Source of the DNA: Candidatus Woesearchaeota archaeon
Lineage (GTDB): Archaea; Nanobdellota; Nanobdellia; Woesearchaeales; GW2011-AR4
NCBI GenBank assembly: GCA_016184145.1
Contig: JACPDF010000023.1
Location: 1,229 to 65,228, forward strand
Length of the DNA: 64,000 nucleotides
Direction of reading: 5' to 3'
Shown here: in pieces, positions 7,397 through 58,480 of the stretch
How the letters are laid out: the number at the start of each line of letters is the position of its first letter
How positions within the stretch are numbered: position 1 is the stretch's first letter
Position numbers and translations under genes: made by a program
The notes under the pieces: generated by a model
Told to the model about the DNA's origin: nothing
The model's input: only the letters and a program-made list of their open reading frames with translations
The model's database searches: none

Positions 7397-7514
7397 AGTT
7401 ATGCCCAAAACAAGAAAACATACGAAACTTTCAAAACAAGAGAGAAAAAGATTGGGCTGGAAGCCAGGGAGCCGTCTCGGTGTTTCGGGATACCACAGGT
7501 ATCCCTAGACGCTG

Positions 7515-8312
7515 TTGTACGGGCACGTACAAATGAAAACCTTCATAAAAGTAGTAAAGGAAATCAATAATACTTTAAATTTCCTGATTATTTTCGAGAG
7601 CGCATTAAATGCAGCCATTTTCTTCCTTGTAGTCTATCTGCTCTTGTCGCTGATAAACCTTTACCCAATACTTGCAGTTATTCCTGCTGCAGTTTATCTT
7701 GCGGCAAGGATGTATGCAAACTCCAAGGCTGACAAAAGAGTTATTGTGGAAAATAAGTATGCGCCCCTGAAAGAAAAATTAAGGACTGCTGCGGACAATA
7801 TCAAAGAGGAAAACCCTGTTGTCAACGAGCTGCAGGAAGAGGTAATTTACGACCTTAAAAATGTGGGTTTGTCATCTTTCATAAACACAAAACAGGTTTC
7901 CTACAAGATACTTGCAACCATACTGCTGTCTTTTGCAATAGTTTTTGCGACAACCATGAACCTTTATATTGTTGACTTGAACCAGTTTCTGGGCAGTATA
8001 CCCGACACTATCAGCAAATTAAGCCTGATGAAAAGAAGCTCTAACACTCCAATAGGGGATGTAAATGAAAGCAGCGACATTTACGGTGACAGCAAGCTCG
8101 CTGTTTTAGGAGAGCAGCAGATTGACATACGGATAAAGCCCGTAAATTATGAGGTCAGCGTAAGGGAAGAAGGCGATGTTGAGCAGAAGCAGTTCGATGA
8201 GATTTTCCCGAGAGAGGTTGATATCAAGCAGTCATCTGCTTATGAGGAAAACATACCCCAAGAGCAGCAGGAGCTTGTCAAAAACTATTTTAACAAGCTT
8301 GCAGGAGGATAA
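7515..8312 (+). CDS. hypothetical membrane protein in the MoxR/vWA cluster
   Basis: 265-aa ORF with two hydrophobic segments and an acidic C-terminus. Confidence 0.4.
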   Translation: MYGHVQMKTFIKVVKEINNTLNFLIIFESALNAAIFFLVVYLLLSLINLYPILAVIPAAVYLAARMYANSKADKRVIVENKYAPLKEKLRTAADNIKEENPVVNELQEEVIYDLKNVGLSSFINTKQVSYKILATILLSFAIVFATTMNLYIVDLNQFLGSIPDTISKLSLMKRSSNTPIGDVNESSDIYGDSKLAVLGEQQIDIRIKPVNYEVSVREEGDVEQKQFDEIFPREVDIKQSSAYEENIPQEQQELVKNYFNKLAGG

Positions 8313-8530
8313 AATAAAGCAATGTATTTGTGCCAATAGTACATATTATTGCAAAAAACAACTGATTAAAAAGAAAAAATATAAATAGTGCAAAAGAGGT
8401 GAAATATCATGAAACACGAAAAAACTTCAAAGAAGTTGTTTGTGTCCCAAAAATCACAAAGTGATTTTTTAGGACAAAAAAAATTTGAAATACAAATTTT
8501 TGAGCTTCATAAAATCGCAGGGGTGATTTT

Positions 8531-9466
8531 ATGAAGAACTATAAGCATGTCTTTGATGCTGTTTTCAAGGAAACAAATAGGGTTATAGTGGGCCAGAATA
8601 ATGTCATAGAGCAGGTTCTTGTGGCTATCATATGCGACGGCAATGCGCTACTGGAAGGATACCCAGGCCTCGCTAAAACGCTGGTTGTAAAGACTTTGGC
8701 TGATATAATGAACCTGAAATTCAGCCGCATCCAGCATACTCCGGACCTGATGCCTTCTGACATTACAGGAACGTACATAATAGAGGAGACATCCGGAAAA
8801 AGAAACTTCAAATTCCAGCCCGGGCCCATATTCGCAAACATTGTTCTTGCAGACGAGATAAACAGGGCCACCCCGAAAACCCAGTCAGCTTTATTGGAAG
8901 CGATGCAGGAAAAGCAGGTTACAATAGGCACAAATACATTCAAGCTCGACCTTCCTTTTTTTGTGCTCGCAACCCAAAACCCGATTGAGCAGGAAGGAAC
9001 TTATCCTTTGCCTGAGGCGCAGGCAGACAGGTTTTTGCTTAAAATAAAGGTAGGCTATCCTTCTTTTGACGAAGAAATGGAAATTGTAGAGAGGTTTGCA
9101 TCAACGCGAACAGAGCAGAAATTAAAGACCATGCTTAACAAGAACCATTTGCTGAGCCTTCAGGCCCTGACAAGGCAGGTTCCGATTGCAAACGACATAA
9201 AATCACGGGCTTTGAAAATAATAGCAGCCACAAGGACAAATAAGGATGTAATCAATTACGGGGCTTCCCCAAGGGCATCCATAGGAATCATTCTTGCTTC
9301 AAAGGCGCTGGCATTGATAAAAGGCAGGAACCATGTGAGCAATGAGGACATAAACGAGATGGCCTACCCCATACTGAGGCACCGCGTCATACTTAACTTT
9401 GAGGCAGAGAGGAAGGGAATGACTACGGATGATGCCATTAAGCACATACTTGACAAGATTAAATAA
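8531..9466 (+). CDS. MoxR-family AAA+ ATPase
   Basis: VGQNNVIEQVLVAIICDGNALLEGYPGLAKT Walker A region, ADEINRATPKTQSALLEAMQE, typical MoxR length. Confidence 0.85.
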   Translation: MKNYKHVFDAVFKETNRVIVGQNNVIEQVLVAIICDGNALLEGYPGLAKTLVVKTLADIMNLKFSRIQHTPDLMPSDITGTYIIEETSGKRNFKFQPGPIFANIVLADEINRATPKTQSALLEAMQEKQVTIGTNTFKLDLPFFVLATQNPIEQEGTYPLPEAQADRFLLKIKVGYPSFDEEMEIVERFASTRTEQKLKTMLNKNHLLSLQALTRQVPIANDIKSRALKIIAATRTNKDVINYGASPRASIGIILASKALALIKGRNHVSNEDINEMAYPILRHRVILNFEAERKGMTTDDAIKHILDKIK

Positions 9467-15472: not shown

Positions 15473-15573
15473 TTTAAATAGGATTAATTTACTTATACTG
15501 CAGAGAAACTCATAATCATGAGAGTTTCCTATATAAACAACAAAAAAACAAACACAAGGAGGTGTTTAGTCAG
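15473..15573 (+). promoter_or_regulatory. putative promoter/RBS region of the S-layer-like gene
   Basis: TTTAAATA box at 15473-15480 and GGAGGTG at 15558-15564, 9 nt before the ATG at 15574. Confidence 0.3.
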
Positions 15574-18183
15574 ATGAGATTTAACAAAACGATAAAGAGA
15601 ATTTCTGCTCTAGGTTTAGGAGCATCAATGGTTGGTGCAACAATCTTCGGCGCAATGGCCGCTGATTTGTCAAACTATCCAAGCCAATACATTAAAGACG
15701 GCAAGTTTACAGGCGTCCTAGTTGTAGGAGACAGAGCTGCAGCAGAAGACGTTATCGGTGTTTCTGACATCGTAGCAAGTTTGCAGTTCGCAGCGACAAA
15801 GCCAGCTGGGGATGTAGCAAGCACACTAACAGCAGAAAATGCCTGGAAAGTCGGAAGCAGCACTAAGATTTTGGAATTAAGCGAAAATATTGCAACAGGC
15901 GATAGCAGAGAAACATTAAGAAACATCACACAATTTGTTGATGATGGTGACTTGAATGCTTTAGCATCTGGAACAGTTACAAATGGAAAAGGAGATGCAC
16001 CATATAACCAATATCTATATCTATTAGGGCCAGGAGGAGGAAATCAAGTAAATACGGGGTATGTTGTCTACACAGAAGATGATAATTCTGTTACAGATAC
16101 GTTCCTATATTTTAAGTCAGGAACTGAAATAGGAAGGTACTTGCTTGAGTTTACAACAGCTCTTGAGTCTGATGTCGATGACAGCGCTGGCGCTGCAACG
16201 ACAACGGGACTTTACCTTACAGATTTTGAGGATACTGACCTCGAGATGTTTGGAAAGAAATATTCTATTGTTACAGCTAGAAGGACATCTTCAACAACTA
16301 ACGGAGGCAAGAACATCAAATTAACTTTGATGGGCGGGGCAGTAAAAGACACACTAGTGGAAGGAAGCACAAAAACCTACACAATTGATGGCAAAGACTA
16401 TGAAGTTACAGTGGATTTCGTAGACTCAAACAGTGCTAAGCTTACCATTAACGGTGAAGCTACAAGAGACTTGCTTGAGGGAGAGACAGACAAGCTTTCT
16501 GACGGAACTACAATAGGAGTCTCAGAGATCCTGTATCAGGACTATGCAGGCGGTGTCCATAATGTGGAGTTTTTCTTGGGAGCCCAAAAAGTAGAGCTGC
16601 AAGATTCAGATGTATCGGATGTTGCATCATCACATGCCCTCAAAGTGGGTGATGATACAATTGATGACGCATTTGTGATTATTGAAGGTACAAATGACAA
16701 CAGTTCATTCAAGATAAGCAGGATACATGTAAACATGACAGCAGATGACGACTTTTATGTGCCAGTAGGAGGCAAATTAAGCGAGAATTCAGATTTGGAT
16801 GAGCCAGAGGTGATATTTACCAATAACTGGGACTTTGAGTACAAAGGATTAAGTGATGAGCTAACAGAAACAATCGAGATAGAAACAAGCGGCAACAAGA
16901 GATACAACCTGAAATTCAAAGACGGAGACGGTGAGGATGTAACACTTCCTTTAATAGAAGCAACAGCTGCTTCAGTGCTGGAGTTCGGAGAAAAAGACAA
17001 AGCATTGATTAATGTAGAAAACAAGACAATAGCCAAAGATGACTACCTCATCTTAACTGACAACTCTAAAAACCGAGGGGAAAGAAAGAGCTATGTACTC
17101 CAATATAAGGGAGCAGATAAATTATCTTCAGATAGCCATGTAGTGAAGTTCAAAAACCTAGGCAATGGTGAAACAATTGAGCAGAGCTATACAAACTCTA
17201 CCCCATTGGCAACCTTAAAGATAGGCGGTGCCGATTACAGAGTTTATGTAGCAGATACTGAAATGGCAGGTCTTCAAGCAAACGATTTTGGCGTTTGGGT
17301 TGATTTAGATTCAAGTGGAGGCTTGGTAAATAACGCCAGCACAAACATTACAACATGGTATGGAATGGAGATAGGGATACAAAACGCTTCAATGATTGGT
17401 GGTTTTTCTGACACCTCGAATGGTGTGATTGTGTCATTTAAAACTCCAGACAATACCAGAGATGGAGGAACTACCCAGGATAATGTAGAGACATTGCAGG
17501 CTACAGATTATGCTGTCAACCTGACATCTGACTCCAGTACGAAGGTAGCGCTTGCTGTACTGACAGGCTGGACAGGGGGACAAAAAGGAACAGCTCTTAG
17601 CGAAAAAACACCTGATGGTGAGACTAATGTGCAGTATACCTATACAAGCTATGGCGCAAAAATAACAAGGAATTCGCCATCAAGCGAGCCAGGAACGCTG
17701 AAAATAGATTATCCAGAGAAGCAAACAGAAGCTTTAGTTTACGTAACTGCTAAAGGAGCAACATTCAGCAGCGTAGCAGAAGGCGGAGCTGTAACAATCC
17801 AAAGGATTGATGTCGGAGCTACAAAATTAGCTTCAGAAGTTGCAAACATCAACAGTGTTAACTCAATCCTTGTTGGAGGGCCATGCGCTAACGCAGCAGC
17901 TGCAGAAGTCATGGGCAACCCAGCAGATTGCACAGCAGGATTTACACCTGGCGTAGGATTAGTCCAGGTCTGGGATGTTGGAACAGGCAATGTTGCCATG
18001 TTGGTAGCTGGTTATGCTGCAGCAGACACAAGAAATGCAGCAGCAGTAGTCTCTAATTACCAGGACTACAAGAGCCAGTTCAAGGGAGCTAAGGTAGAGG
18101 TAAAGAAAGTTGGTTCAACCTTGACTGTTGCTGAGCCAAGCACCGCTGCACCAGCAATGGAAGAAGAAACAACAACTGAATAA
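15574..18183 (+). CDS. secreted S-layer-like surface protein
   Basis: signal peptide MRFNKTIKRISALGLGASMVGATIFGAMA, T/S/D/G-rich, acidic C-terminus, strong RBS. Confidence 0.6.
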   Translation: MRFNKTIKRISALGLGASMVGATIFGAMAADLSNYPSQYIKDGKFTGVLVVGDRAAAEDVIGVSDIVASLQFAATKPAGDVASTLTAENAWKVGSSTKILELSENIATGDSRETLRNITQFVDDGDLNALASGTVTNGKGDAPYNQYLYLLGPGGGNQVNTGYVVYTEDDNSVTDTFLYFKSGTEIGRYLLEFTTALESDVDDSAGAATTTGLYLTDFEDTDLEMFGKKYSIVTARRTSSTTNGGKNIKLTLMGGAVKDTLVEGSTKTYTIDGKDYEVTVDFVDSNSAKLTINGEATRDLLEGETDKLSDGTTIGVSEILYQDYAGGVHNVEFFLGAQKVELQDSDVSDVASSHALKVGDDTIDDAFVIIEGTNDNSSFKISRIHVNMTADDDFYVPVGGKLSENSDLDEPEVIFTNNWDFEYKGLSDELTETIEIETSGNKRYNLKFKDGDGEDVTLPLIEATAASVLEFGEKDKALINVENKTIAKDDYLILTDNSKNRGERKSYVLQYKGADKLSSDSHVVKFKNLGNGETIEQSYTNSTPLATLKIGGADYRVYVADTEMAGLQANDFGVWVDLDSSGGLVNNASTNITTWYGMEIGIQNASMIGGFSDTSNGVIVSFKTPDNTRDGGTTQDNVETLQATDYAVNLTSDSSTKVALAVLTGWTGGQKGTALSEKTPDGETNVQYTYTSYGAKITRNSPSSEPGTLKIDYPEKQTEALVYVTAKGATFSSVAEGGAVTIQRIDVGATKLASEVANINSVNSILVGGPCANAAAAEVMGNPADCTAGFTPGVGLVQVWDVGTGNVAMLVAGYAAADTRNAAAVVSNYQDYKSQFKGAKVEVKKVGSTLTVAEPSTAAPAMEEETTTE

Positions 18184-18200
18184 AGGAAGCTAAAACACGC

Positions 18201-18242
18201 AAAAATCGAAGATTTTTGGTGTCCTGAAAATCAAAGATTTTC
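18201..18242. terminator. two tandem AAAATC-N3-GATTTT hairpins downstream of the S-layer-like gene
   Basis: aaaaatcgaagattttt and gaaaatcaaagattttc; the second 17-mer is identical to one inside the enolase 3' end. Confidence 0.3.
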
Positions 18243-18309
18243 ATGACTTCCTTAATTTTTTCTTTTGAAGGAATTGTGGGACAATAAAGAAGATGAAGTG
18301 TGGGAAAAC

Positions 18310-19533
18310 TTAGGAACTTAACAATTCTCCAAGAAATATATTATGCTTTGTTCTCCTAATCTTCAGCTTAACAGAGCCTTCTTTTTTATCACAATTAGGC
18401 ACGGAAATAAGCCTGTCACGGGCTACAGCCAGCATTTCTCCCGGCAACCTTCCAGGCAGGACTATCTTAGCCTCTATAACCTCGCCTTTTTTGAAGGGCT
18501 TGGGGTATTCCCTGCAATCCTTAATCTTGAAGTCTTTAGCTTCAAAAAGCAGCTTTAAGCCGTGTTTTTTCTCCAAATCCTTCATCTTCTCAAAGAAAAC
18601 GTCTAAATCCATTGGTTTCATGGGATTTCGGCCGAATTTGTAAGGCAGGAAGTTCTGGATTCCTATAGCAGGCCCTGTCTTGCCAGCGCCTATGTCGCGA
18701 GCAAATTTAGCCAATTTGACAATCTCATCATCATTATAGCCTGGCAGCCATACAGGAGTCAAAATGAGGTCCATCCTCGTTGGAATATATTTAGCGATGT
18801 CCAAAACATGTTTTAAGGGGTACGGGCTTCCGTATAAGGTATTTGCAAGCTTCTGGTCAAGCGCATGCAGCGAAAGATTGACTCTAGTCAATCCAGCATC
18901 TGCAAGCTGATCAACCAGCTTTTTGCTCAAAAAAACGCCGTTTGTGTCTATAGAAATCATATTGACAGCTTTTATTTTCGCTATATCCCTTACCAGGGGA
19001 ACAATATCCGCATATAAAAGAGGCTCTCCCTGCGAGTTGATATGTGCATCTATTCCATCAATATTCTTGAATTCAATCAATTTCTTCAATTCCTGCATAA
19101 TATAGTCCTTCTCGACAACGAAATCAACTTTCCTTCTTGATTTTGGGCCTTCATCCACAGAGCAGAAAATACAGCCAAGGTTGCAGCTTGTTATGGGCTT
19201 GATCTCTATCAAATTTGTCCCTCTGTCAATAATGCCAAAATAATTGGTTCCAATTAGGGGTATTCCCGAATATTTATGGATATAATACGAACCCTTATTG
19301 GCTATTTTGTTTTTCAGCGATTTAAATGAGCTGGAAAGAAGCAGGGTAAATTTTCTTCTTGCCTTGCCCTCGTTAGCCTTGGAGAATATGATTTTTTTCC
19401 GTTCTATCCTGTATGGGCTTATTTTTTCAATCATTCCCTTGTCTACGTCTGTATAAAACAGGTTCATAAAGTATATCCTGACCTTTCCATCCCTTTCCTC
19501 AAATACCAAGTCCTCAAATTCAAGTTCTGCCAT
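18310..19533 (-). CDS. radical SAM domain protein with C-terminal OB/TRAM-like region
   Basis: CNLGCIFCSVDEG (Cx3Cx2C) cluster; 407 aa. Confidence 0.65.
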   Translation of the reverse strand: MAELEFEDLVFEERDGKVRIYFMNLFYTDVDKGMIEKISPYRIERKKIIFSKANEGKARRKFTLLLSSSFKSLKNKIANKGSYYIHKYSGIPLIGTNYFGIIDRGTNLIEIKPITSCNLGCIFCSVDEGPKSRRKVDFVVEKDYIMQELKKLIEFKNIDGIDAHINSQGEPLLYADIVPLVRDIAKIKAVNMISIDTNGVFLSKKLVDQLADAGLTRVNLSLHALDQKLANTLYGSPYPLKHVLDIAKYIPTRMDLILTPVWLPGYNDDEIVKLAKFARDIGAGKTGPAIGIQNFLPYKFGRNPMKPMDLDVFFEKMKDLEKKHGLKLLFEAKDFKIKDCREYPKPFKKGEVIEAKIVLPGRLPGEMLAVARDRLISVPNCDKKEGSVKLKIRRTKHNIFLGELLSS

Positions 19534-19594: not shown

Positions 19595-20233
19595 ATGGAA
19601 GCCAAAGAAATAAACATTACTTATGAAACCCTTTTTGAGATACTGAAGAGAGAGAGGGATACCGCTGACCTGCAGAAGCTTGACATTAACTTCTTTGACG
19701 ATTTTGTGGACTATCTTAATGAAAAAAAGAAGCTGCTGGAGAAAGAAGACTCTTTGTTTTCATATGACGAGAAAAAAAAAGTAGAGAAGCAGATTGACAA
19801 CGCAAGAAGAATAATCAAGGACATATACGAAAGAAGGGAAAAGAAGATAATGGGCATAGCGCTCATAAAAAGCAGGACCAAATCAGATGTTATGGACAAG
19901 TCCGCTTTTCTGGAGCATGAAAAAAAGCTTTTCAATGAGATTGTAAGGACTATGGACAGCTTCAGGAAGAGCATTATCCACAATGTAACCCTGGGAAAAA
20001 AGCCTTCAGAGACAAAAATTGAAAATAAAGAAATGGGAAGGGATGAAAGCGCTGGGAAAGATGCCAAGCAGGACAGCAGCACTGCAAAACTTGTAAGGTT
20101 TTTGCATTCCGTGCCTAAATTTGTCGGCAAGGAATTGGAAGAATACGGCCCTTTTGAAGAAGAGGACATTGCAAATCTGCCGTCGGAAATTGCAGATCTT
20201 CTCATAGGCAAAGGGAGAGTAAGGGAGAGTTGA
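19595..20233 (+). CDS. GINS-like replication factor (Gins51/Gins15-like)
   Basis: N-terminus ITYETLFEILKRERDTADLQKLDINFFDDFVDYLNEKKKLL resembles the archaeal Gins51 N-terminal helix; length about 210 aa. Confidence 0.4.
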   Translation: MEAKEINITYETLFEILKRERDTADLQKLDINFFDDFVDYLNEKKKLLEKEDSLFSYDEKKKVEKQIDNARRIIKDIYERREKKIMGIALIKSRTKSDVMDKSAFLEHEKKLFNEIVRTMDSFRKSIIHNVTLGKKPSETKIENKEMGRDESAGKDAKQDSSTAKLVRFLHSVPKFVGKELEEYGPFEEEDIANLPSEIADLLIGKGRVRES

Positions 20234-22869: not shown

Positions 22870-24186
22870 TTGCCTAAGATAAAAAAGATAACAGCAAGGG
22901 AAGTTCTTGATTCCAGGGGAAATCCTACTGTAGAGGCAGATGTTCTAACGGAAAAGTTTGTTGCAAGCTCTATTGTTCCTTCCGGCGCATCAACGGGAAA
23001 GCATGAGGCATTAGAGCTTAGGGATAACGATAAAAAAAGGTATGATAGAAAGGGCGTCTTGAAAGCTGTGGACAATATCAACAAAATTATTTCTAAAAAA
23101 CTGGTTGGCTTGGATTGCAGAAATCAAAAGCAGATTGACGAATTGATGATAAGCTTGGATGGAACAGAAAACAAATCAAAATTAGGCGCAAATGCCATGC
23201 TTGCTGTTTCCATGGCTGTGTGCAAGGCAGGAGCATTGCATAATAATGCGGATTTATTTGAATATATCAGAAGAATTTCAGGCTCAAAAGAGATTTCTTT
23301 GCCAATACCGCAGCTGAACATCATTAATGGCGGAAAGCATGCCGGAATGGAAAATGACATCCAGGAGCATATGATAATGCCATTTAATTTCAAAAATTTT
23401 AAGGATGCTTTAAGGGCAGGTGTCGAGGTTTATCACGAGCTAAAAAGCCTTTTGAAGCAAAGATACGGCGCCCAAGGCACCTTGCTTGCCGATGAGGGCG
23501 GATTTGCTCCAAAGGCAAATAACATTCATGACAGGCTGGATTTGATAAGCAACGCAATAAGAAACGCCGGCTATGAAAAGAAAATCAAGCTGGCCCTGGA
23601 CTGTGCTGCTTCTGAATTTTACTATGATGGCTATTATAAAGTTGGCAATGAAAAATATAATTTCCGGCAATTAATTGATTTCTATAGAAAGCTCGTCGAG
23701 AAATATGAAATAATATCGATTGAAGACGGCATGGCGGAAGATGACTGGCAGGGATGGCAGCAATTAACTAAAGAGTTAGGAAGCAGAATACAATTGGTCG
23801 GAGATGATTTATTAGTCACAAATACAGATAGGATTAAAAAAGCAATAAAAGAAAGCTCCTGCAATTCATTATTGCTGAAAGTCAACCAGATAGGCACTGT
23901 AACAGAAGCGATTGAAGCCGCAAACTTGGCTTTTAAAAACCGCTGGAAAGTAGTTGTAAGCCATAGGAGCGGTGAAACAGAAGATTCCTTTATTGCAGAC
24001 CTTGTTGTCGGCTTAAATGCTGGCCAAAGCAAGTTTGGAGCTCCAGCAAGATCAGAAAGAACTGCAAAATACAACAGGCTTTTAAGGATAGAGGAGATAC
24101 TCGAAAATCAAAGATTTTCGGTACCCCGAAAATCCAAGGGGTTTTCTAGGGTTTTGGGAAAGAAAGCAAAGCTTGCGAAATTCTAA
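22870..24186 (+). CDS. eno: enolase, with a 17-aa C-terminal insertion encoded by a palindromic mini-repeat
   Basis: [19 protein letters not shown]..., SHRSGETED; C-terminus RIEEILE[[17 protein letters not shown]]GKKAKLAKF. Confidence 0.95.
24103..24146. repeat. overlapping palindromic mini-repeat inside the enolase 3' coding end
   Basis: gaaaatcaaagattttc / ttttcggtaccccgaaaa / gaaaatccaaggggttttc; the first 17-mer is identical to 18226-18242. Confidence 0.55.
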
Positions 24187-24187
24187 G

Positions 24188-24934
24188 ATGATGAAGCTAG
24201 TACTTTTAAGGCATGGAGAAAGCGTCTGGAACAAGGAAAATAGGTTTACAGGCTGGACTGATGTTGGTCTTACGGAAAAAGGAGTGGAAGAAGCAAAGGA
24301 AGCAGCCAAGGTATTGAAAAAAGAAGGCTATGATTTTGATGTTGTTTTTACCAACGTATTAAAAAGGGCAACCAAGACAACAGAGATAGTTCTTAAGGAA
24401 ATGGGGCTTAAAATTCCCGTCCATAAAGCCTGGCAATTAAATGAGAGGCATTACGGGGCCTTGCAGGGCCTTAACAAGTCTGAAATGGCAGCTAAGTATG
24501 GTGAGGAGCAGGTGCTTAAATGGAGAAGAAACTATGACATAAGGCCGCCGGCATTGGCAAAGGACGATAAAAGATACCCCGGCAAGGACCCGATGTATGA
24601 AGGTTTAGATAAAAAAGATATCCCTTTGACAGAGAGCCTTAAGGATTGCGTTGCCAGAGTTAAGCCGTATTGGGAGAATTCTATCATACCCAAACTTAAA
24701 GCAGAAAAAAAGGTTTTGGTTTCTGCATCTGGAAACAGCTTAAGGGCTTTGGTAAAAATAATTGATAATATTTCCGACGAGGAAATCGTGCATTTTAACA
24801 TTCCAACCGGAATCCCATTAGTTTACGAACTTGACAAAAATTTCAGAGCTATAAAGCATTACTTCTTAGGCAATCCCGAAGAGATAAAAAGGAGAATGGA
24901 AGCTGTAGCTGCACAGGGCAGGGCAAAAAAATAG
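24188..24934 (+). CDS. gpmA: 2,3-bisphosphoglycerate-dependent phosphoglycerate mutase
   Basis: [29 protein letters not shown] histidine-phosphatase signature; overlaps the enolase stop. Confidence 0.85.
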
Positions 24935-24947
24935 CAGCTTTTTGTAT

Positions 24948-25415
24948 CTATTTTGCTTTCTTTAAATTATCTCTATAAAAACCAATTTCTTCTTCATTTA
25001 GGTTTGAAATAAAATTATCAAACTCAGAAATAAACGTTTTTGCTTCTTGAAGCATCCTTTCTACCTCCTCTTCCTTGCCTACTTTCATGTAATATTGCGC
25101 ATCAATTCTTTTGTTTTTATGCTCATTTATTATTTTTGTTTTTTCTTCTCCAAGGAGATGTGTTGCTGCTAAGATGGAACAAAAATGATTTTCACATTTT
25201 ATGCCTATCCTCTGAAGGAAAGAGTACAATGCATAATATTCCGCGTAATAAATTACAACTGTAGCCCAAAGCAGGTCACCATCTTTAAAATTCTTTTCAG
25301 CTCTTTTTAATGAAGACTTGCTTTCTTTAAGATAAGATTTTGCCAGTCTTTCATTAGATTCAAATATCCTTAGGCCATCTTTTAACTTAAAGCACCATCT
25401 TATTTTATTTTGCAT
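24948..25415 (-). CDS. HEPN-domain protein (partner of the adjacent nucleotidyltransferase)
   Basis: all-helical, about 155 aa, motif region KNKRIDAQYY; 11-nt overlap with the upstream MNT gene. Confidence 0.55.
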   Translation of the reverse strand: MQNKIRWCFKLKDGLRIFESNERLAKSYLKESKSSLKRAEKNFKDGDLLWATVVIYYAEYYALYSFLQRIGIKCENHFCSILAATHLLGEEKTKIINEHKNKRIDAQYYMKVGKEEEVERMLQEAKTFISEFDNFISNLNEEEIGFYRDNLKKAK

Positions 25416-25983
25416 TTTTCCTCCACATAGCATTAACATAAAAGGAATGGTTATTCAGGACTATATGATTTTCCGCAACCTCCTTAAGCAAGGTGTTATC
25501 GTCTTCGGATAAAAATTGGTCGTATGTCAAATCTATTTTATGTATCTTATAGGGGAGCAAATGAGACGGAATATCAAAGTTTCCATCAAGTTTTGATATG
25601 GCTAGAATATCTAAGTCTGAACCTGCTTTTGCAGCAAATTTGGCAAAACTGCCAAACACTATTAAAGGCATATTTGACTCCAATCCCTTAATAAATGTCT
25701 TGGATAGAGGATACTTACCCAAAAATAACAGGGTTTTATAAATCTCGGATTGCAGCAAATAAAATTTTGTTTCTATATTGTCTAGGTTTAGCCCAAAGTA
25801 TTTGTTCTTCCCCCTTATAGTACCCCTTAATATCTTGCTTTTTTCAAGTTCTGATAACAAATTTTGTGTTGTTTTTAGAGGTATTTTAGTTAATTCGCTT
25901 ATTTCCCTAAGATAAAACTGATTAGTATAACTCCCAAGATAAAGCGTCAAAAGTGCCAGTCTTTTGTTCCTTTTTTGATACAT
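25405..25983 (-). CDS. nucleotidyltransferase (MNT) with N-terminal winged-helix domain
   Basis: LIVFGSFAKFAAKAGSDLDILAI (GS...DxD) polymerase-beta NTase motif. Confidence 0.65.
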   Translation of the reverse strand: MYQKRNKRLALLTLYLGSYTNQFYLREISELTKIPLKTTQNLLSELEKSKILRGTIRGKNKYFGLNLDNIETKFYLLQSEIYKTLLFLGKYPLSKTFIKGLESNMPLIVFGSFAKFAAKAGSDLDILAISKLDGNFDIPSHLLPYKIHKIDLTYDQFLSEDDNTLLKEVAENHIVLNNHSFYVNAMWRKNAK

Positions 25984-50344: not shown

Positions 50345-50608
50345 TAAAGTCAAGTTCCACAATATAGAAATATCCTTATAGTAAAGGACACAAATTTTTA
50401 GACATAAATATGTCCTTTACTTATTACGAACGGACAACTATTGGTTTGAATTTATGAAAACCTTGAAAATCTCTGATTTTCATTGTATAAAAATTTTTGT
50501 CCGGGAGTATAGTTGATTTTGTTTTCCATGCCTTTATTACTTGAGGGGACAAAGCTATTGCAACCAAAAAACCAGCCGTCCACCCAATAATTTCAAAGAT
50601 GTGGTCAT

Positions 50609-52330
50609 TTAATTATTTTTTGTGCTAGCCCTTACAAACCCATAAAACAAAGGGCTTGGATTGCCTAACCTTGACTTAAATTCCGGATGCGCCTGCGTTC
50701 CTATAAAGAAGGGATGTTTTGGCAGCTCAATGTATTCCATCAATTTTGTCTTGTCCTCCCTTAAATGATAACCGGAGAAAACCAATCCATTTTTTTCTAG
50801 AGTATTAATAAACTTGGGATTAACTTCATAGCGGTGCCTGTGCCTTTCCAGCACAATATTCCTCTCGTGGTCTAAAATCCCCAACCTAAATTCCTGTGAT
50901 TTGTCTTTCTTTAATTTGCCGATTTTTTCTTCATCCTCTTTCAGCCTTCCTGTTTCCTTGTACAATTTCAGAACCTGGCTTTTATCCTTTAAAACAGCAG
51001 CGTAAGCGCCTAGGCGCATTGTGCCTCCGTATTGCGATTTTTCCATAAGCTCTTTTTGTGTTGGCAGCATGTCAATTACAGGAGCGTTAGTCTTCTCGTT
51101 TTCCGCTGTGTTTGCATTTTTCATATTGCATACATTCCTTGCAAATTCAACAACTGCCAATTGAAGCCCATAGCACAAGCCAAGGTAAGGCATCTTATGC
51201 GTCCTTGCATAATTAATGGCTTTTATCTTTCCTTCTACTCCAGAAGCGCCAAAGCCACCTGGCACTATAATCCCATTGTACTCTTTTAGAATACCAATAT
51301 TCCTGCTATTATCCTCAAACCTTTTTGAGTCAACCCAGTGTATCTCCACCCCTGCATCCAAAGATGCGCCTGCATGTATCAAAGCCTGGTTGACGCTTAC
51401 ATAGCTATCAGCTAAATTATAGTCTCCGATGTCAACATACTTTCCCACAATAGCAACCTTAACTGCCTTTTTTGGATTCTTTATCCTGCTTACCAATTTT
51501 TTCCATTCATTCCAGTTTGGCTCTTTTTTCGGCTTCAATTCCAGTTTTTTCAGGATTTTGATGCCAAGCTGCTCTTTTTCCAGGTCTAAAGGTATAGAGT
51601 AAATGGTGTCTATGTCGGGCTCTGAAATCACATGCTCTGAGGGGATATTTGCATATGTCTCTATTTTCTGTTTCCTTACCCTGTCAAGGGCCTTTTTTGC
51701 CCTGCAGACAATGAAATCCGGAAAAATGCCATTTTCGCTTAGCAGCCTGATGGCCTGCTGAGTGGGTTTGGTCTTCATTTCCTCTATATGGGAGGGTATC
51801 GGAAGGTATGTTATAAGAATGTATATGACATTATCTTTTCCAAGCTCCCTTTCCATGCTTTTCATCGCAAAAAGGAAGGGTATGTTTTCATAGTCTCCAA
51901 TAGTGCCGCCAATCTCAACAATAGAAATATCATGCTCTTTGCTTGCTTCTGCTATCCTTCTTTTTATTTCATCAGGCACATGGGGGATAAACTGCACAGT
52001 TTTTCCAAGATATTTCCCTTCCCTTTCCTTGTCAATTATTGTCTTGTATATCTGCCCTGTGGTTATGTTGTTCTTTTTCGGGACCTCAACATCCAGGAAC
52101 CTTTCATAATTTCCCAAATCCTGGTCTATTTCGCCGCCATCATCAGTAACCCATACCTCGCCATGCTCTGTCGGCCTTAATGTTCCTGCATCATAATTAA
52201 TGTAAGGATCTATCTTTATTGTTGTTACCCTGAAGCCATGCTCTGAGAGAATTCTTGCTATTGAGGCTGTGGTAACTCCCTTGCCTACTCCGCTCATTAC
52301 TCCCCCAGCTACAACTATGTACTTAGTCAT
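50609..52330 (-). CDS. pyrG: CTP synthase
   Basis: MTKYIVVAGGVMSGVGKGVTTASIARIL N-terminus; C-terminal glutamine amidotransferase (LGLCYGLQ). Confidence 0.95.
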   Translation of the reverse strand: MTKYIVVAGGVMSGVGKGVTTASIARILSEHGFRVTTIKIDPYINYDAGTLRPTEHGEVWVTDDGGEIDQDLGNYERFLDVEVPKKNNITTGQIYKTIIDKEREGKYLGKTVQFIPHVPDEIKRRIAEASKEHDISIVEIGGTIGDYENIPFLFAMKSMERELGKDNVIYILITYLPIPSHIEEMKTKPTQQAIRLLSENGIFPDFIVCRAKKALDRVRKQKIETYANIPSEHVISEPDIDTIYSIPLDLEKEQLGIKILKKLELKPKKEPNWNEWKKLVSRIKNPKKAVKVAIVGKYVDIGDYNLADSYVSVNQALIHAGASLDAGVEIHWVDSKRFEDNSRNIGILKEYNGIIVPGGFGASGVEGKIKAINYARTHKMPYLGLCYGLQLAVVEFARNVCNMKNANTAENEKTNAPVIDMLPTQKELMEKSQYGGTMRLGAYAAVLKDKSQVLKLYKETGRLKEDEEKIGKLKKDKSQEFRLGILDHERNIVLERHRHRYEVNPKFINTLEKNGLVFSGYHLREDKTKLMEYIELPKHPFFIGTQAHPEFKSRLGNPSPLFYGFVRASTKNN

Positions 52331-52535
52331 GGACACCATCCCCTAAGTCAAAAAGAATTAAGTTTTTTACTCGTTGCATCAATAAGGTATGAAACAATCC
52401 ATATAAATAGTTTGCGGTTTTTTGCCATATAGTATAGCTTTCTGAAATCGTTAAATGCCTAAAGAAGATTTGCCAGCTTTTTTATGTCTTTGTTTCATTT
52501 CCTACATTCAGGCAACTTCGTTTAATTCTATAACT

Positions 52536-53525: not shown

Positions 53526-54356
53526 CTATTGCTCCATGATCTCATAGAATACATAAAGAACCCTGTCTATTCCCCTGACCAAGTCAAAGCCATTGCCTTC
53601 CACAATAATGCAGTTGCGGTCAAAAGAAACTTTGCTTTCATTCGCTTCCTTCACATATAAAACAAATTTATCTGTATTGTCGCATGTTATTATCGGCCTG
53701 TCCCTGCACGCAAAAGTCTCATTTCTGTCGCAGGCTGCTATAGGCTGCTTAAAGAATATATCTGCCATATGCCGTTCAAAGTCTGCAACTGCAAGAGCTA
53801 CACGCGAAAAATCCTTTCCAGTAGGGTCAAAAGTAACATAATAGTCGGTAGCGTTATTGAAAAGATTGAAATCCAAAGCACCGCTTATCTTAATATCCTC
53901 CACTTCCTTCGGCCCGTACCTGAATTGCACATTATACAATCTGGTCTTTTGTGGGCTTACAAGCTGAATATACCATAAATCCTCAAACTTTACGAAAGAA
54001 TAAACATCTTTGTACAAGTATCCCTGATCCGGCTTTAATTTTCCCTTGAAGTTGAGCTGATGCAGATCATCAATTGTCTTAGGCTGCTCCTGTGTAAAAA
54101 GCCTTATTCCGAATACAACAGCAAAAAGCAGCATCAATAAAACAGCGCCTATTATAAGAATTTTATCTGACTTGAATTTTGCCTCTTTAGGCTCTTCTTT
54201 TTCAGTCTGTGTTTTTTTCTCCGGTATTTCCTCTATTTCCTTTTTCTTTTTTTCATACTCTTCCCTGCTTATGACGCCTTCCTCAAAACTTTCCTCAAGC
54301 TTTTTTAATTTTATTTCTTTCATTGTCAAAAACCACCCATCATAGATGGGTGGCAT
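53526..54356 (-). CDS. membrane-anchored hypothetical protein (paralog of 54622-55284); the true start is probably the internal Met near 54323
   Basis: N-terminal charged SHOCT-like helix and TM; C-terminal region is homologous to the neighbouring gene (RPIITCDNTDKFVLYV.../APVITCSNSTNFVPVVY...). Confidence 0.45.
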   Translation of the reverse strand: MPPIYDGWFLTMKEIKLKKLEESFEEGVISREEYEKKKKEIEEIPEKKTQTEKEEPKEAKFKSDKILIIGAVLLMLLFAVVFGIRLFTQEQPKTIDDLHQLNFKGKLKPDQGYLYKDVYSFVKFEDLWYIQLVSPQKTRLYNVQFRYGPKEVEDIKISGALDFNLFNNATDYYVTFDPTGKDFSRVALAVADFERHMADIFFKQPIAACDRNETFACRDRPIITCDNTDKFVLYVKEANESKVSFDRNCIIVEGNGFDLVRGIDRVLYVFYEIMEQ

Positions 54357-54440
54357 GTAATAATTTTATTATGTATTATGGTGGTTTTTGACTAAGCGAA
54401 TTCCACCACTATTTATCCACCAATCATAGAATTGGTGGAA
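54325..54440. repeat. palindromic element family 2, copy X
   Basis: gtcaaaaaccacc ... ggtggtttttgac 13-bp inverted repeat; ccacccatc/gatgggtgg and ccaccaat/attggtgg palindromes; homologous to 58349-58478. Confidence 0.55.
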
Positions 54441-54518
54441 TTTTAGCGTATTAAACAAACCTTTTTATTATAAATATCCCATAGGGATACAGGAACGTAA
54501 GTGGCTGTATTTAAAATG

Positions 54519-55383: not shown

Positions 55384-55932
55384 ATGTCTAAAATAATAAA
55401 CATAGATTCATTTTTGGTGCATTTTTTTGAAGATGCAAATAGATGGTTTCATGTCAGGGAAATGGCCAGATTGGCAAGGGTAAATCCTACAACCGCATCC
55501 AAATATCTTATTAAGCTCCACAAGGAAAATCTGCTTATAAAAAAGTATGAAAAAGGGCATTTATTGTTTAAAGCAAACAACGAAAATGATTTTTACAAAG
55601 ACGCAAAGGTATATTTTAATATAAAGTTATTAAGGCATTCCGGCCTAATCGAATATTTAGACAAGGAACTGCATTATCCTGAAGCAATTGTGCTTTTTGG
55701 CTCTTGCTCTAAAGGAGAAAATGATAAAAACAGCGATTTTGATTTATTTGCTGTAAGCAATGTAAAAAAAGAATTGGATTTAGGCGTATTTGAAAAAAAA
55801 ATTAAGGCAAGAATACAGCTATTTATCAAAAACAAAAAAGAATTTATAAACCTTCAAAAGGAAAACAAAAATTTAGCTAACGGTATAATCAATGGCATTG
55901 TTATAAAAGGCTACATTGAGGTTTTTGCATGA
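55384..55932 (+). CDS. nucleotidyltransferase (MNT) with N-terminal winged-helix domain
   Basis: IVLFGSCSKGENDKNSDFDLFAV NTase motif. Confidence 0.65.
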   Translation: MSKIINIDSFLVHFFEDANRWFHVREMARLARVNPTTASKYLIKLHKENLLIKKYEKGHLLFKANNENDFYKDAKVYFNIKLLRHSGLIEYLDKELHYPEAIVLFGSCSKGENDKNSDFDLFAVSNVKKELDLGVFEKKIKARIQLFIKNKKEFINLQKENKNLANGIINGIVIKGYIEVFA

Positions 55933-56345
55933 GATTTCAGGATTTCATAGAACAAGGCAAAGCCAGGAAAGGAAGCCCGGACGTTTCTAAAGTTAAATCT
56001 TTACTGGAAACTTCAAATAATCATTTATTGTTTCTAGAAAATCAAAAAATCAATGAAGTAAGCGCAGGAAGCATTTTAACAACTTACTATGAGGCATTAA
56101 GGGAAATAGTCGAGGCTATTTGTTTAAAAGAAGGATTTAAAGTCTACTCGCATGAGGCATTTACTTATTTCCTAAAAGAGAAAAATGAGGATATAATTGC
56201 GATAAAATTTGATAATCTGAGAAAGCTCAGAAATTCCATAAACTATTATGGCGAAAAAATTAGCTATAAAGAGGCTGAATATGCAAAAGAAGAAGCACTA
56301 AAGCTGATAAGGCTTCTTAAAAATGCATACTTAAAAGGGTTTTAA
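55929..56345 (+). CDS. HEPN-domain protein partner
   Basis: 138 aa, helical; motif region LRKLRNSINYYG; ATGA overlap with the MNT gene. Confidence 0.55.
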   Translation: MRFQDFIEQGKARKGSPDVSKVKSLLETSNNHLLFLENQKINEVSAGSILTTYYEALREIVEAICLKEGFKVYSHEAFTYFLKEKNEDIIAIKFDNLRKLRNSINYYGEKISYKEAEYAKEEALKLIRLLKNAYLKGF

Positions 56346-58348: not shown

Positions 58349-58478
58349 GGAATTCCACCATTGGTGGAATGAGTAGTGCTCAAAAACCACCATCATTGGT
58401 GGAATTCCGAGTATCAAAAACCATTGAATATGAAACTAATGAAAACATGCCACTGGTCTTTGACTGGTGGTTTTTGAC
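58349..58478. repeat. palindromic element family 2, copy Y
   Basis: ttccaccattggtggaa perfect palindrome; tcaaaaaccacca ... tggtggtttttga 13-bp inverted repeat; shares ggtggtttttgac and catgccac with copy X. Confidence 0.55.
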
Positions 58479-58480
58479 AA

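Follow-up and report, generated by a model that had tools for sequence, protein, structure and literature searches.

A 54-nt double-hairpin repeat probably inserted in frame in the enolase gene of a woesearchaeote, and a candidate archaeal repeat family to which it belongs

As summarised in PMC2996958, Rickettsia palindromic elements (RPE) and the coding repeats of Wolbachia (Ogata et al. 2000, 2005) lie both between genes and in frame in housekeeping genes, where they add short peptides to surface or non-structured parts of the protein while the gene is kept. The same source cites an archaeal precedent, the Methanocaldococcus jannaschii palindromic repeats MJRE1-3 (Suyama, Lathe and Bork 2005, FEBS Lett), a mostly extragenic family with a few, non-disrupting copies in coding regions. 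Here we analyse a 54-nt element of two adjacent hairpins in the 3' end of the enolase gene of a Candidatus Woesearchaeota archaeon, and the repeat family that it resembles. The gene lies on a stretch of 64,000 nucleotides (hereafter “the window”, 38% GC) that covers positions 1,229 to 65,228 of contig JACPDF010000023.1, assembly GCA_016184145.1. RPE are about 100–150 bp long, and MJRE elements are reported to be about 100 nt in average length (141 elements, 14.3 kb); to our knowledge, in-frame colonisation by palindromes in archaea has been the subject of a single report, in 2005. The element also recalls REP, REPIN and BIME sequences, which are short imperfect palindromes in multiple copies, mainly extragenic and often arranged as doublets; as single strands they fold into hairpins, and their insertion leaves no target-site duplication (PMC3116915, PMC3733652, PMC2817692). 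For archaea, only general counts of REP-like palindromes have been given (PMC12306157).

We read the enolase insert as a copy of a dispersed repeat that was inserted in frame, and give this reading a probability of roughly 80%, because the insert is absent from relatives, appears in alignments as a clean 54-nt gap and matches a covariance model of the repeat family (R1, described below) over its full length.

The insert-bearing protein is 100% identical to the NCBI entry ‘phosphopyruvate hydratase [Candidatus Woesearchaeota archaeon]’, matches the Pfam domains Enolase_N and Enolase_C, and keeps all invariant enolase columns. Its best match in the PDB is the solved M. jannaschii enolase (2pa6, E 2.6e-142), with an alignment that ends at residue 414. 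Eighteen residues near this point are missing from all 59 of the best other enolase homologs with C-termini read, in which the typical C-terminus is ...RIEE(I/E)LG.KA..AKF; the closest homolog (P0002, 85% identical) reads RIEEILGSKAKLAKF. When the DNA is aligned with that of the two nearest relatives (L001 and L002, 85% and 83% amino acid identity), one gap opens, exactly 54 nt long, the empty site being GAGGAAA/TTTTGGG and the filled site GAGGAGA(TACTC...TAGGG)TTTTGGG. The boundaries of the insert (Table 1) follow from this alignment with empty sites and are ambiguous in placement by 1 nt; no target-site duplication is visible between filled and empty site beyond this ambiguity of at most 1 nt. 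Exact removal of the insert gives back the ancestral ...RIEEILGKK.... An earlier reading of the window, made from its letters without database searches (hereafter the sequence-only reading), had proposed that about 17 residues, or 51 nt, were inserted near the enolase C-terminus. The comparison of C-termini bears out the insertion and corrects its size to 18 residues and 54 nt. A surface loop, which that reading had raised as a question for structural modelling, is also what an AlphaFold2 model predicts (56 homologs; mean predicted local distance difference test score, pLDDT, 86.5; predicted template modelling score 0.89). In this model the last barrel helix spans residues 395–413 and residues 417–432 fall below a pLDDT of 50, followed by the native C-terminal tail, and the insert is best read from it as a tolerated, flexible, basic and disordered surface loop after the last helix.

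Table 1. Positions within the window of the enolase element, its host gene and associated features. CDS, coding sequence; CM, covariance model; ORF, open reading frame.
Feature	Position	Strand	Remarks
Enolase CDS	22870-24186	+	438 aa; host gene of the insertion; ORF call
54-nt double-hairpin element	24098-24151	+	18 codons, in frame; part of codon I410 to part of codon V428
Hairpin 1, CGAAAATC-AAA-GATTTTCG	24102-24120	+	
Hairpin 2, GAAAATCC-AAG-GGGTTTTC, imperfect	24128-24146	+	One T.G mismatch; DNA/RNA folds, CM alignment
Intergenic sister copy, ACACGC-AAAAATCGAAGATTTTT-GGTGTCCT-GAAAATCAAAGATTTTC-ATGA	18195-18248	+	CM 53.4 bits, E 7.8e-9
Degenerate copy, then third hairpin AAAAATTTG-AAATA-CAAATTTTT	8414-8475, then 8479-8501		CM 27 bits, E 0.0016
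Remnant copy	50450-50504		CM about 23 bits, E about 0.01
Empty site in window CTP synthase (50609-52339 -)	50861-50875	-	Independent 54-nt insertion in L090, L243
Histidine-phosphatase-family gene, probable phosphoglycerate mutase	24191-24934	+	Pfam His_Phos_1, E 2e-34

The insert is made up of TAC(T)C-hairpin 1-GGTA, followed by CCC-hairpin 2-(TA)GGG. Hairpin 1 stands on a basal stem that pairs T24098-A24099-C24100 with G24121-T24122-A24123 and leaves T24101 bulged, which is the layout of the family model, while the basal stem of hairpin 2 pairs the upstream CCC run with G24149-G24151 and leaves T24147-A24148 unpaired. Predicted folds consist of the two hairpins, both as RNA (-21.5 kcal/mol, z = -2.0 relative to shuffles) and as DNA (-12.2 kcal/mol, z = -2.9). 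Inverted repeats are present at 24102-24120 (CGAAAATC/GATTTTCG) and 24113-24134 (GATTTTCGG/CCGAAAATC). Where three overlapping hairpins had been proposed (24103-24146), the inverted repeats are present, the third of them imperfect, and the arrangement is better described as a pair of adjacent hairpins whose neighbouring arms can alternatively pair with each other.

The 17-mer GAAAATCAAAGATTTTC within hairpin 1 (24103-24119) recurs exactly at 18226-18242, beside the sister hairpin AAAAATCGAAGATTTTT (18201-18217), just as the sequence-only reading had stated. Allowing up to three mismatches it has seven matches in the window, against 1.41 ± 1.05 in dinucleotide shuffles (0 of 100 reach seven). 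The homology of the two loci is not confined to the 17-mer on which it had been proposed and extends to the whole unit: they align across about 45–54 nt, and in each the first hairpin is separated from the second by 8 nt (GGTGTCCT or GGTACCCC), the two hairpins starting 25 nt apart. The intergenic copy, whose RNA fold has a z of -3.1, sits between the convergent genes for an S-layer-like protein (15562-18183 +) and a radical-SAM protein (18310-19533 -). Upstream of a MoxR-type AAA ATPase gene (8531-9466 +; Pfam), the degenerate copy and its third hairpin (8414-8501) include perfect hairpins at 8449-8469 and 8479-8501, and the remnant, which lies between the CTP synthase and SecD/F genes, keeps one intact hairpin, TGAAAATC-TCT-GATTTTCA (50464-50482).

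To define the family, a metagenome collection was scanned with the two-hairpin pattern GAAAATCNNNGATTTTCN{7,9}RAAAAN{7,13}TTTTY, which matched at least 120 loci, with 125 copies among the matches listed; from base composition we estimate that chance alone would give anything from under 1 to about 10 matches. The covariance model R1 was built from 36 distinct metagenome copies of fixed geometry, with the window copies left out, and was run over the window with filters off. Its best match is the enolase insert (24097-24152, 67.1 bits, E 1.4e-11), which spans model positions 1–56 of 56, and the model ends coincide with the indel boundaries from the DNA alignment. In the family, hairpin 1 has a basal stem of 3–5 bp, a one-base 5' bulge, one further pair, and an apical GAAAATC/GATTTTC stem closed by a variable 3-nt loop, and hairpin 2 has RAAAAnnn/nnnTTTTY as its apical stem.

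Covariation was judged in the 36 copies at those stem positions that the search pattern left free. The pair beside the apical stem of hairpin 1 (columns 6–24) occurs as CG 16, AU 10, UA 6 and GC 1, and the inner pair of hairpin 2 (columns 38–44) as GC 12, UA 12 and CG 8. Overall, pairs form in 87.6% of the free stem cells (76.0 ± 1.0 in shuffles), and 111 cells are changed on both sides, against 47 ± 6, with neither value attained in any of 500 shuffles; in controls with slid partners, pairing falls to 30–62%. A guessed register for the basal stem of hairpin 2 in the family paired in 41.7% of cells and was dropped as unsupported. There is also subfamily structure: the arrangement ACACGC-hA-GGTGTCCT-hB-ATGA is found in at least nine metagenome contigs and includes the 18.2-kb copy of the window, and similarity between its members stops immediately past those ends. 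No conserved target motif was found in the flanks of copies, where the profile has a weak C at -3 and -1 and a weak G at +3. Rfam gave no match in the window at gathering score, and in 17 archaeal loci it matched only tRNAs and the S15 leader, elsewhere in those loci. Literature searches, with incomplete coverage and with the MJRE sequences uncompared, found no paper on the 17-mer or on such a family.

Copies of the family are mostly intergenic and occur in all classes of spacer, as assigned with a crude gene caller at the metagenome loci: 50 copies are in co-directional, 17 in convergent and 13 in divergent spacers, which amount to 48, 15.6 and 20.4 kb of sequence, respectively. As the counts are roughly proportional to spacer length, there is no significant bias to gene 3' ends, which argues against a dedicated role as a terminator. 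The earlier assignment of the 18.2-kb copy to a terminator region is thus not supported, whereas the view that a normally intergenic palindromic repeat had landed in frame in enolase agrees with the mostly intergenic family and with the full-length R1 match. The earlier finding holds, and it extends somewhat further than first described. Elements can sit immediately against translation starts: two copies (L204, L206) stop one codon short of a start codon, in one case that of ribosomal protein L18 and in the other that of RNA polymerase subunit P. At a further locus (L226, around 846–1900) a reverse-transcriptase gene (..YIRYVDDFVIL..) begins directly beside a copy. In co-directional spacers (L123-L242), the element is oriented opposite to the flanking genes in 33 cases and in the same sense in 17.

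Nine independent copies lie within genes, and all of them preserve the frame, are free of stops and have the same orientation. These include a copy in UDP-GlcNAc 2-epimerase (...NNAR-ENQRFSGPKKFEKFF-REI...; locus L146, where the PDB alignment is ambiguous on the exact insert boundaries), one in the archaeal phosphopantothenate synthetase (ENQRFSGHQKSKGFF), whose Pfam domain is split into two stretches, and one in a linker of a Gins51 homolog of the window ORF 19595-20233 (KKIKDFRHTENSENFP). Further in-frame hosts are a PIN-ATPase-KH protein, a haloarchaeal-type TnpB and two unassigned proteins. The CTP synthase of a Nanoarchaeota metagenome-assembled genome (MAG; L090) carries a copy as well (ENQRFSGLQKSKGFL), and 49 residues around it are without counterpart in the solved Sulfolobus enzyme. 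For this gene the window holds the empty allele: in a codon-by-codon comparison, its CTP synthase reads ...GIL-DHER-NIVLE and that of L090 ...GIL-GTRENQRFSGLQKSKGFLRENK-NIVLE, a gain of 18 codons or 54 nt. The filled allele is also present in an independent ENA assembly at 92% DNA identity, where one substitution breaks the stem of hairpin 1; with two assemblies carrying the allele, one of them stem-broken, insertions therefore persist and then decay as hairpins. Separately from the element, the window CTP synthase shares with L090 and L243 a lineage-specific segment of the GATase domain (KETGRLKEDEEKIGKLKKDKSQEFRLGIL), which is without counterpart in solved CTP synthases and distinct from the adjoining element insertion in the relatives.

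Genes broken by the element were sought by deleting each copy in silico, and no candidate proved to be a real split gene. A peptide search of a word-indexed protein database with a composite of all open element frames gave three candidates and one match, a relative of the CTP synthase (P0121). A 30-residue window peptide compared with 1.84 billion representatives matched nothing at E <= 0.001, such short queries being too weak.

Across GTDB genomes (596 Gb), the 17-mer occurs at 120 loci or more, about 29 of them archaeal among the matches listed. Most of the archaeal loci listed carry a second hairpin about 8 nt away, with A-rich and T-rich arms; the bacterial loci among the matches listed belong to unrelated repeat families and score only 27–37 bits on R1. 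These bacterial repeats embed GAAAATCAAAGATTTTC in various contexts, such as ‘ttaaggcgcaa-17mer-agcaagg’ and ‘cacataaga-17mer-aaaaactta’ in Chryseobacterium, ‘gattgccac-17mer-tcgcaatgac’ in Gastranaerophilales/Vampirovibrio and ‘agttcgattac-17mer-tatctcactta’ in Clostridia, and it is also the apical hairpin of repeats in Oscillospiraceae and Lentimicrobiaceae (examples are L010, L020, L012, L023, L022 and L053, within L003-L122). Strong R1 matches (E < 1e-4) were confined to archaea among the organism-labelled genome loci listed, namely Woese-, Pace-, Nano- and Aenigmarchaeota, Halorutilales, and MAGs labelled Methanosarcinales and Methanobacteriota; for the methanogen-labelled contigs, binning errors could inflate the apparent host range. 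Additional copies, unselected by the search patterns, were found in the same contigs. IMG/VR viral contigs had no match to the two-hairpin pattern, and a virus-borne origin was dropped on this result.

Copies in the cultured haloarchaea Haloarcula and Halovenus score 38–44 bits on R1. A blastn search with the Haloarcula copy found a core of ~52 nt, and nothing beyond it, in plasmids of nine haloarchaeal genera, with none of these core matches underlying an annotated feature. The AT-rich stem GAAAATC-NAA-GATTTTC is retained in haloarchaeal genomes of about 65% GC. Haloarchaeal versions (L117, 2174-2229 and 4892-4945; L245-L248, around 2000) have an additional outer stem, GGTTC...GAACC, around the two hairpins; their second hairpin is GC-rich, GAGAGAGC-NNN-GCTCTCTC, while hairpin 1 remains AT-rich; in Haloarcula sediminis the repeated unit reaches about 90 nt.

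Several points weigh against the reading of the enolase insert as an inserted copy of a dispersed repeat. The enolase insertion is known from a single metagenome-assembled contig; furthermore, the copies counted are the four loci in these 64 kb, translation of the insert is inferred from preservation of the ORF, and a Pfam scan of 20 window ORFs found no transposase or RAYT. The membership of the haloarchaeal copies in the R1 family is only moderately supported, their 38–44 bits standing against 27–37 bits for bacterial loci that share only the 17-mer. An assembly or binning artefact of the MAG would be in keeping with the single contig, from which alone the protein cluster derives, with the lack of a record of the exact protein in the contig index, and with repeats being a classic source of misassembly. 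We consider it very unlikely nonetheless, given that the insert is exactly 54 nt, in frame and free of stops, with correct enolase sequence on either side, that an assembly-graph error would require long k-mers shared at both junctions, and that the analogous CTP synthase insertion is found in two independent assemblies. That independent insertion of equal size also speaks against an origin in place, in which the hairpins would have formed through template switching or a local duplication near the native AAATTTTGG, their likeness to the 18.2-kb locus being a convergence of A/T-rich palindromes. In favour of this origin, the native target GAAA/TTTTGG resembles the element arms, the right junction GGGTTTTC-TA-GGGTTTTG looks like a local direct repeat, and the presence of the 17-mer as apical hairpin in unrelated bacterial repeats indicates that A/T-rich hairpins recur. 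However, with a full-length match to an independent model (E 1e-11) that takes in the spacer, the bulge and the basal stems and ends at the indel, and with subfamily structure common to several contigs, a local origin is highly improbable.

The hairpins could instead have been kept for a function. As a cis-element that stabilises RNA, signals processing or termination, or binds a protein as a palindrome, the pair would tune the expression of enolase together with the mutase gene that begins 5 nt past the enolase stop codon, an arrangement that relatives share; its translation within enolase would then be incidental. Folds that are thermodynamically better than shuffles, a position about 40 nt 5' of the start of this next gene, covarying stems in the family and the retention of the GAAAATC stem in GC-rich haloarchaeal DNA, which hints at recognition by a factor, would all suit such a role. 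The hairpins are, however, missing at the enolase position in all relatives despite the same gene pair, the copies have no significant preference for gene 3' ends or any class of spacer, and the copy in the CTP synthase gene already carries a stem-breaking substitution; regulation of this kind is therefore improbable. Some archaeal mRNAs are spliced through bulge-helix-bulge motifs, and if the element were removed from RNA like such an intron, the mature enolase would lack the 18 residues, as exact removal of the insert would restore the ancestral sequence. No bulge-helix-bulge motif can, however, be drawn across the junctions: ACUC, at the 5' end of the would-be intron, finds no complementary bases where the 3' exon begins, and two independent hairpins are predicted instead. 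Moreover, 9 of 9 in-gene copies keep the frame without stops, and deletion never rescued a split gene. We rejected splicing on the missing motif and the preserved frames, and regard it as extremely unlikely.

Insertion of a dispersed repeat, the reading that we prefer, would have proceeded by the complete element landing between the A and the T of ...GAGGAAA/TTTTGGG..., where the last enolase helix ends. The gene has remained intact because the element has 18 codons, is stop-free in this frame and falls in a surface-exposed C-terminal stretch, and the element would then be read through as a basic, disordered loop of 18 residues. Selection may act as the filter, such that copies persist in genes only if they keep the frame, lack stops, lie in sense orientation and fall in a loop or linker, given the nine independent in-gene cases and no frame-breaking copy. 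The uniform orientation of in-gene copies, against the opposite lean of those in co-directional spacers, is as selection on coding compatibility would give; sense frames appear to give polar, basic peptides, and antisense frames hydrophobic ones such as KIFDF and KSLIF.

By analogy with REP/RAYT systems and the HUH enzymes of the IS200/IS605 type, the element may owe its spread to a machinery that acts on hairpins folded from single-stranded DNA. We suggest this tentatively, and at less than even odds, because conservation is centred on the hairpins, the bulge is strand-specific, the ends are exact and no target duplication is visible. Both mapped targets, in enolase and in CTP synthase, adjoin ATTTTG(G), which may hint at microhomology, two cases being too few to say. 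On a plasmid of Halobellus ramosii (NZ_CP101826.1; L244, 1500-1800) a copy lies directly upstream of an unannotated, 5'-truncated remnant of an IS200-like tnpA that begins at the HUH motif (..PDHVHLF..), with an orc1/cdc6 gene nearby. At locus L164, a copy is located inside tnpB, beside tnpA. The insertion sequence at this locus is the sole complete IS605 (tnpA + tnpB) met in the analysis and has CCCCGCGC-TTTA-GCGCGGGG at both ends; these end hairpins are unrelated to the element, and the link to IS200/IS605 is a lead only. A plasmid of Natronorubrum aibiense (L245) has a copy in a 1.6-kb unannotated gap, also beside an orc1/cdc6 gene.

The type of event is known from Rickettsia, Wolbachia and M. 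jannaschii, and the family differs from these in its 54-nt length, its two-hairpin layout and its apparent span of phyla. As with RPE and MJRE, it is found both between genes and in ORFs, in frame and free of stops, and the enolase insert falls in a part of the protein predicted to be at the surface and non-structured (the low-pLDDT residues 417–432). The hosts of RPE and of the Wolbachia repeats are bacterial intracellular parasites, with elements described within one genus, whereas the 54-nt family here appears to span several archaeal phyla; the sequences are also unrelated, the element here consisting of two short adjacent hairpins with the conserved GAAAATC/GATTTTC stem. MJRE were described for one genome and differ from the present family in size and host range, though the two may yet be related in sequence. 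The resemblance to REP extends to short imperfect palindromes in multiple, mainly extragenic copies. REPs, however, are strongly biased to gene 3' ends, the archaeal copies not significantly so, and REP families are specific to species or genera, whereas the stem sequence here recurs across archaeal phyla. The GTAG/CGTC tetranucleotide at the foot of the REP stem (PMC3733652) was not found in the flank profile of the copies. Miniature inverted-repeat transposable elements and IS200/IS605-derived elements are likewise small, non-autonomous and dispersed, and copies of the family occur in a TnpB gene and beside a tnpA remnant. Nevertheless, the element is without terminal inverted repeats or a target duplication at the enolase site, and its hairpins are unlike the ends of the L164 IS605, the one complete insertion sequence examined.

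The window contains further short hairpin repeats, mostly tandem pairs, in spacers at 1986-2066, 7487-7532, 54333-54460 and 58350-58480. Motifs common to these loci are ‘agcgaattcc...ggaattttagcg’ at 2007 and 54398, ‘ggaattccacca..tggtggaatt’ at 54400 and 58350, and ‘tggtggtttttgac’ at 54378 and 58466. Perfect hairpins with a stem of at least 7 number 46 in the window, against 22 ± 4 in Markov shuffles. Directly 3' of the enolase-mutase pair (24948-25983 -), a HEPN-domain ORF overlaps a nucleotidyltransferase-like ORF with a weak Polbeta match, and a second nucleotidyltransferase ORF (55384-55932, within 55384-56345, +) is followed by an unassigned ORF of 138 aa; the layout of these ORFs resembles HEPN/MNT toxin-antitoxin pairs.

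Whether all of these copies represent one family of ~54 nt, with a near-invariant GAAAATC/GATTTTC apical stem, across DPANN, methanogen lineages and cultured haloarchaea of 60–70% GC, and a recurrent source of loops in core enzymes, is a proposal that we hold with somewhat less than even confidence. If true, a family that crosses phyla would imply a conserved machinery acting in trans, be it an enzyme that mobilises the element or a host protein that binds its hairpin, and the family would be an equivalent in archaea, so far undescribed, of the coding palindromes of Rickettsia. Clean empty and filled alleles are available for both enolase and CTP synthase, two core enzymes, the size of 54 nt permits biochemical study, and the apparent carriers include culturable haloarchaea. 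Testable questions are thereby raised about what moves hairpin-only elements in archaea, about the AT-rich stem in GC-rich genomes and about the frequency with which such DNA is turned into protein. The finding matters for the annotation and phylogenomics of DPANN archaea, where ‘indels’ that are specific to a lineage in marker proteins may have arisen by the insertion of repeats.

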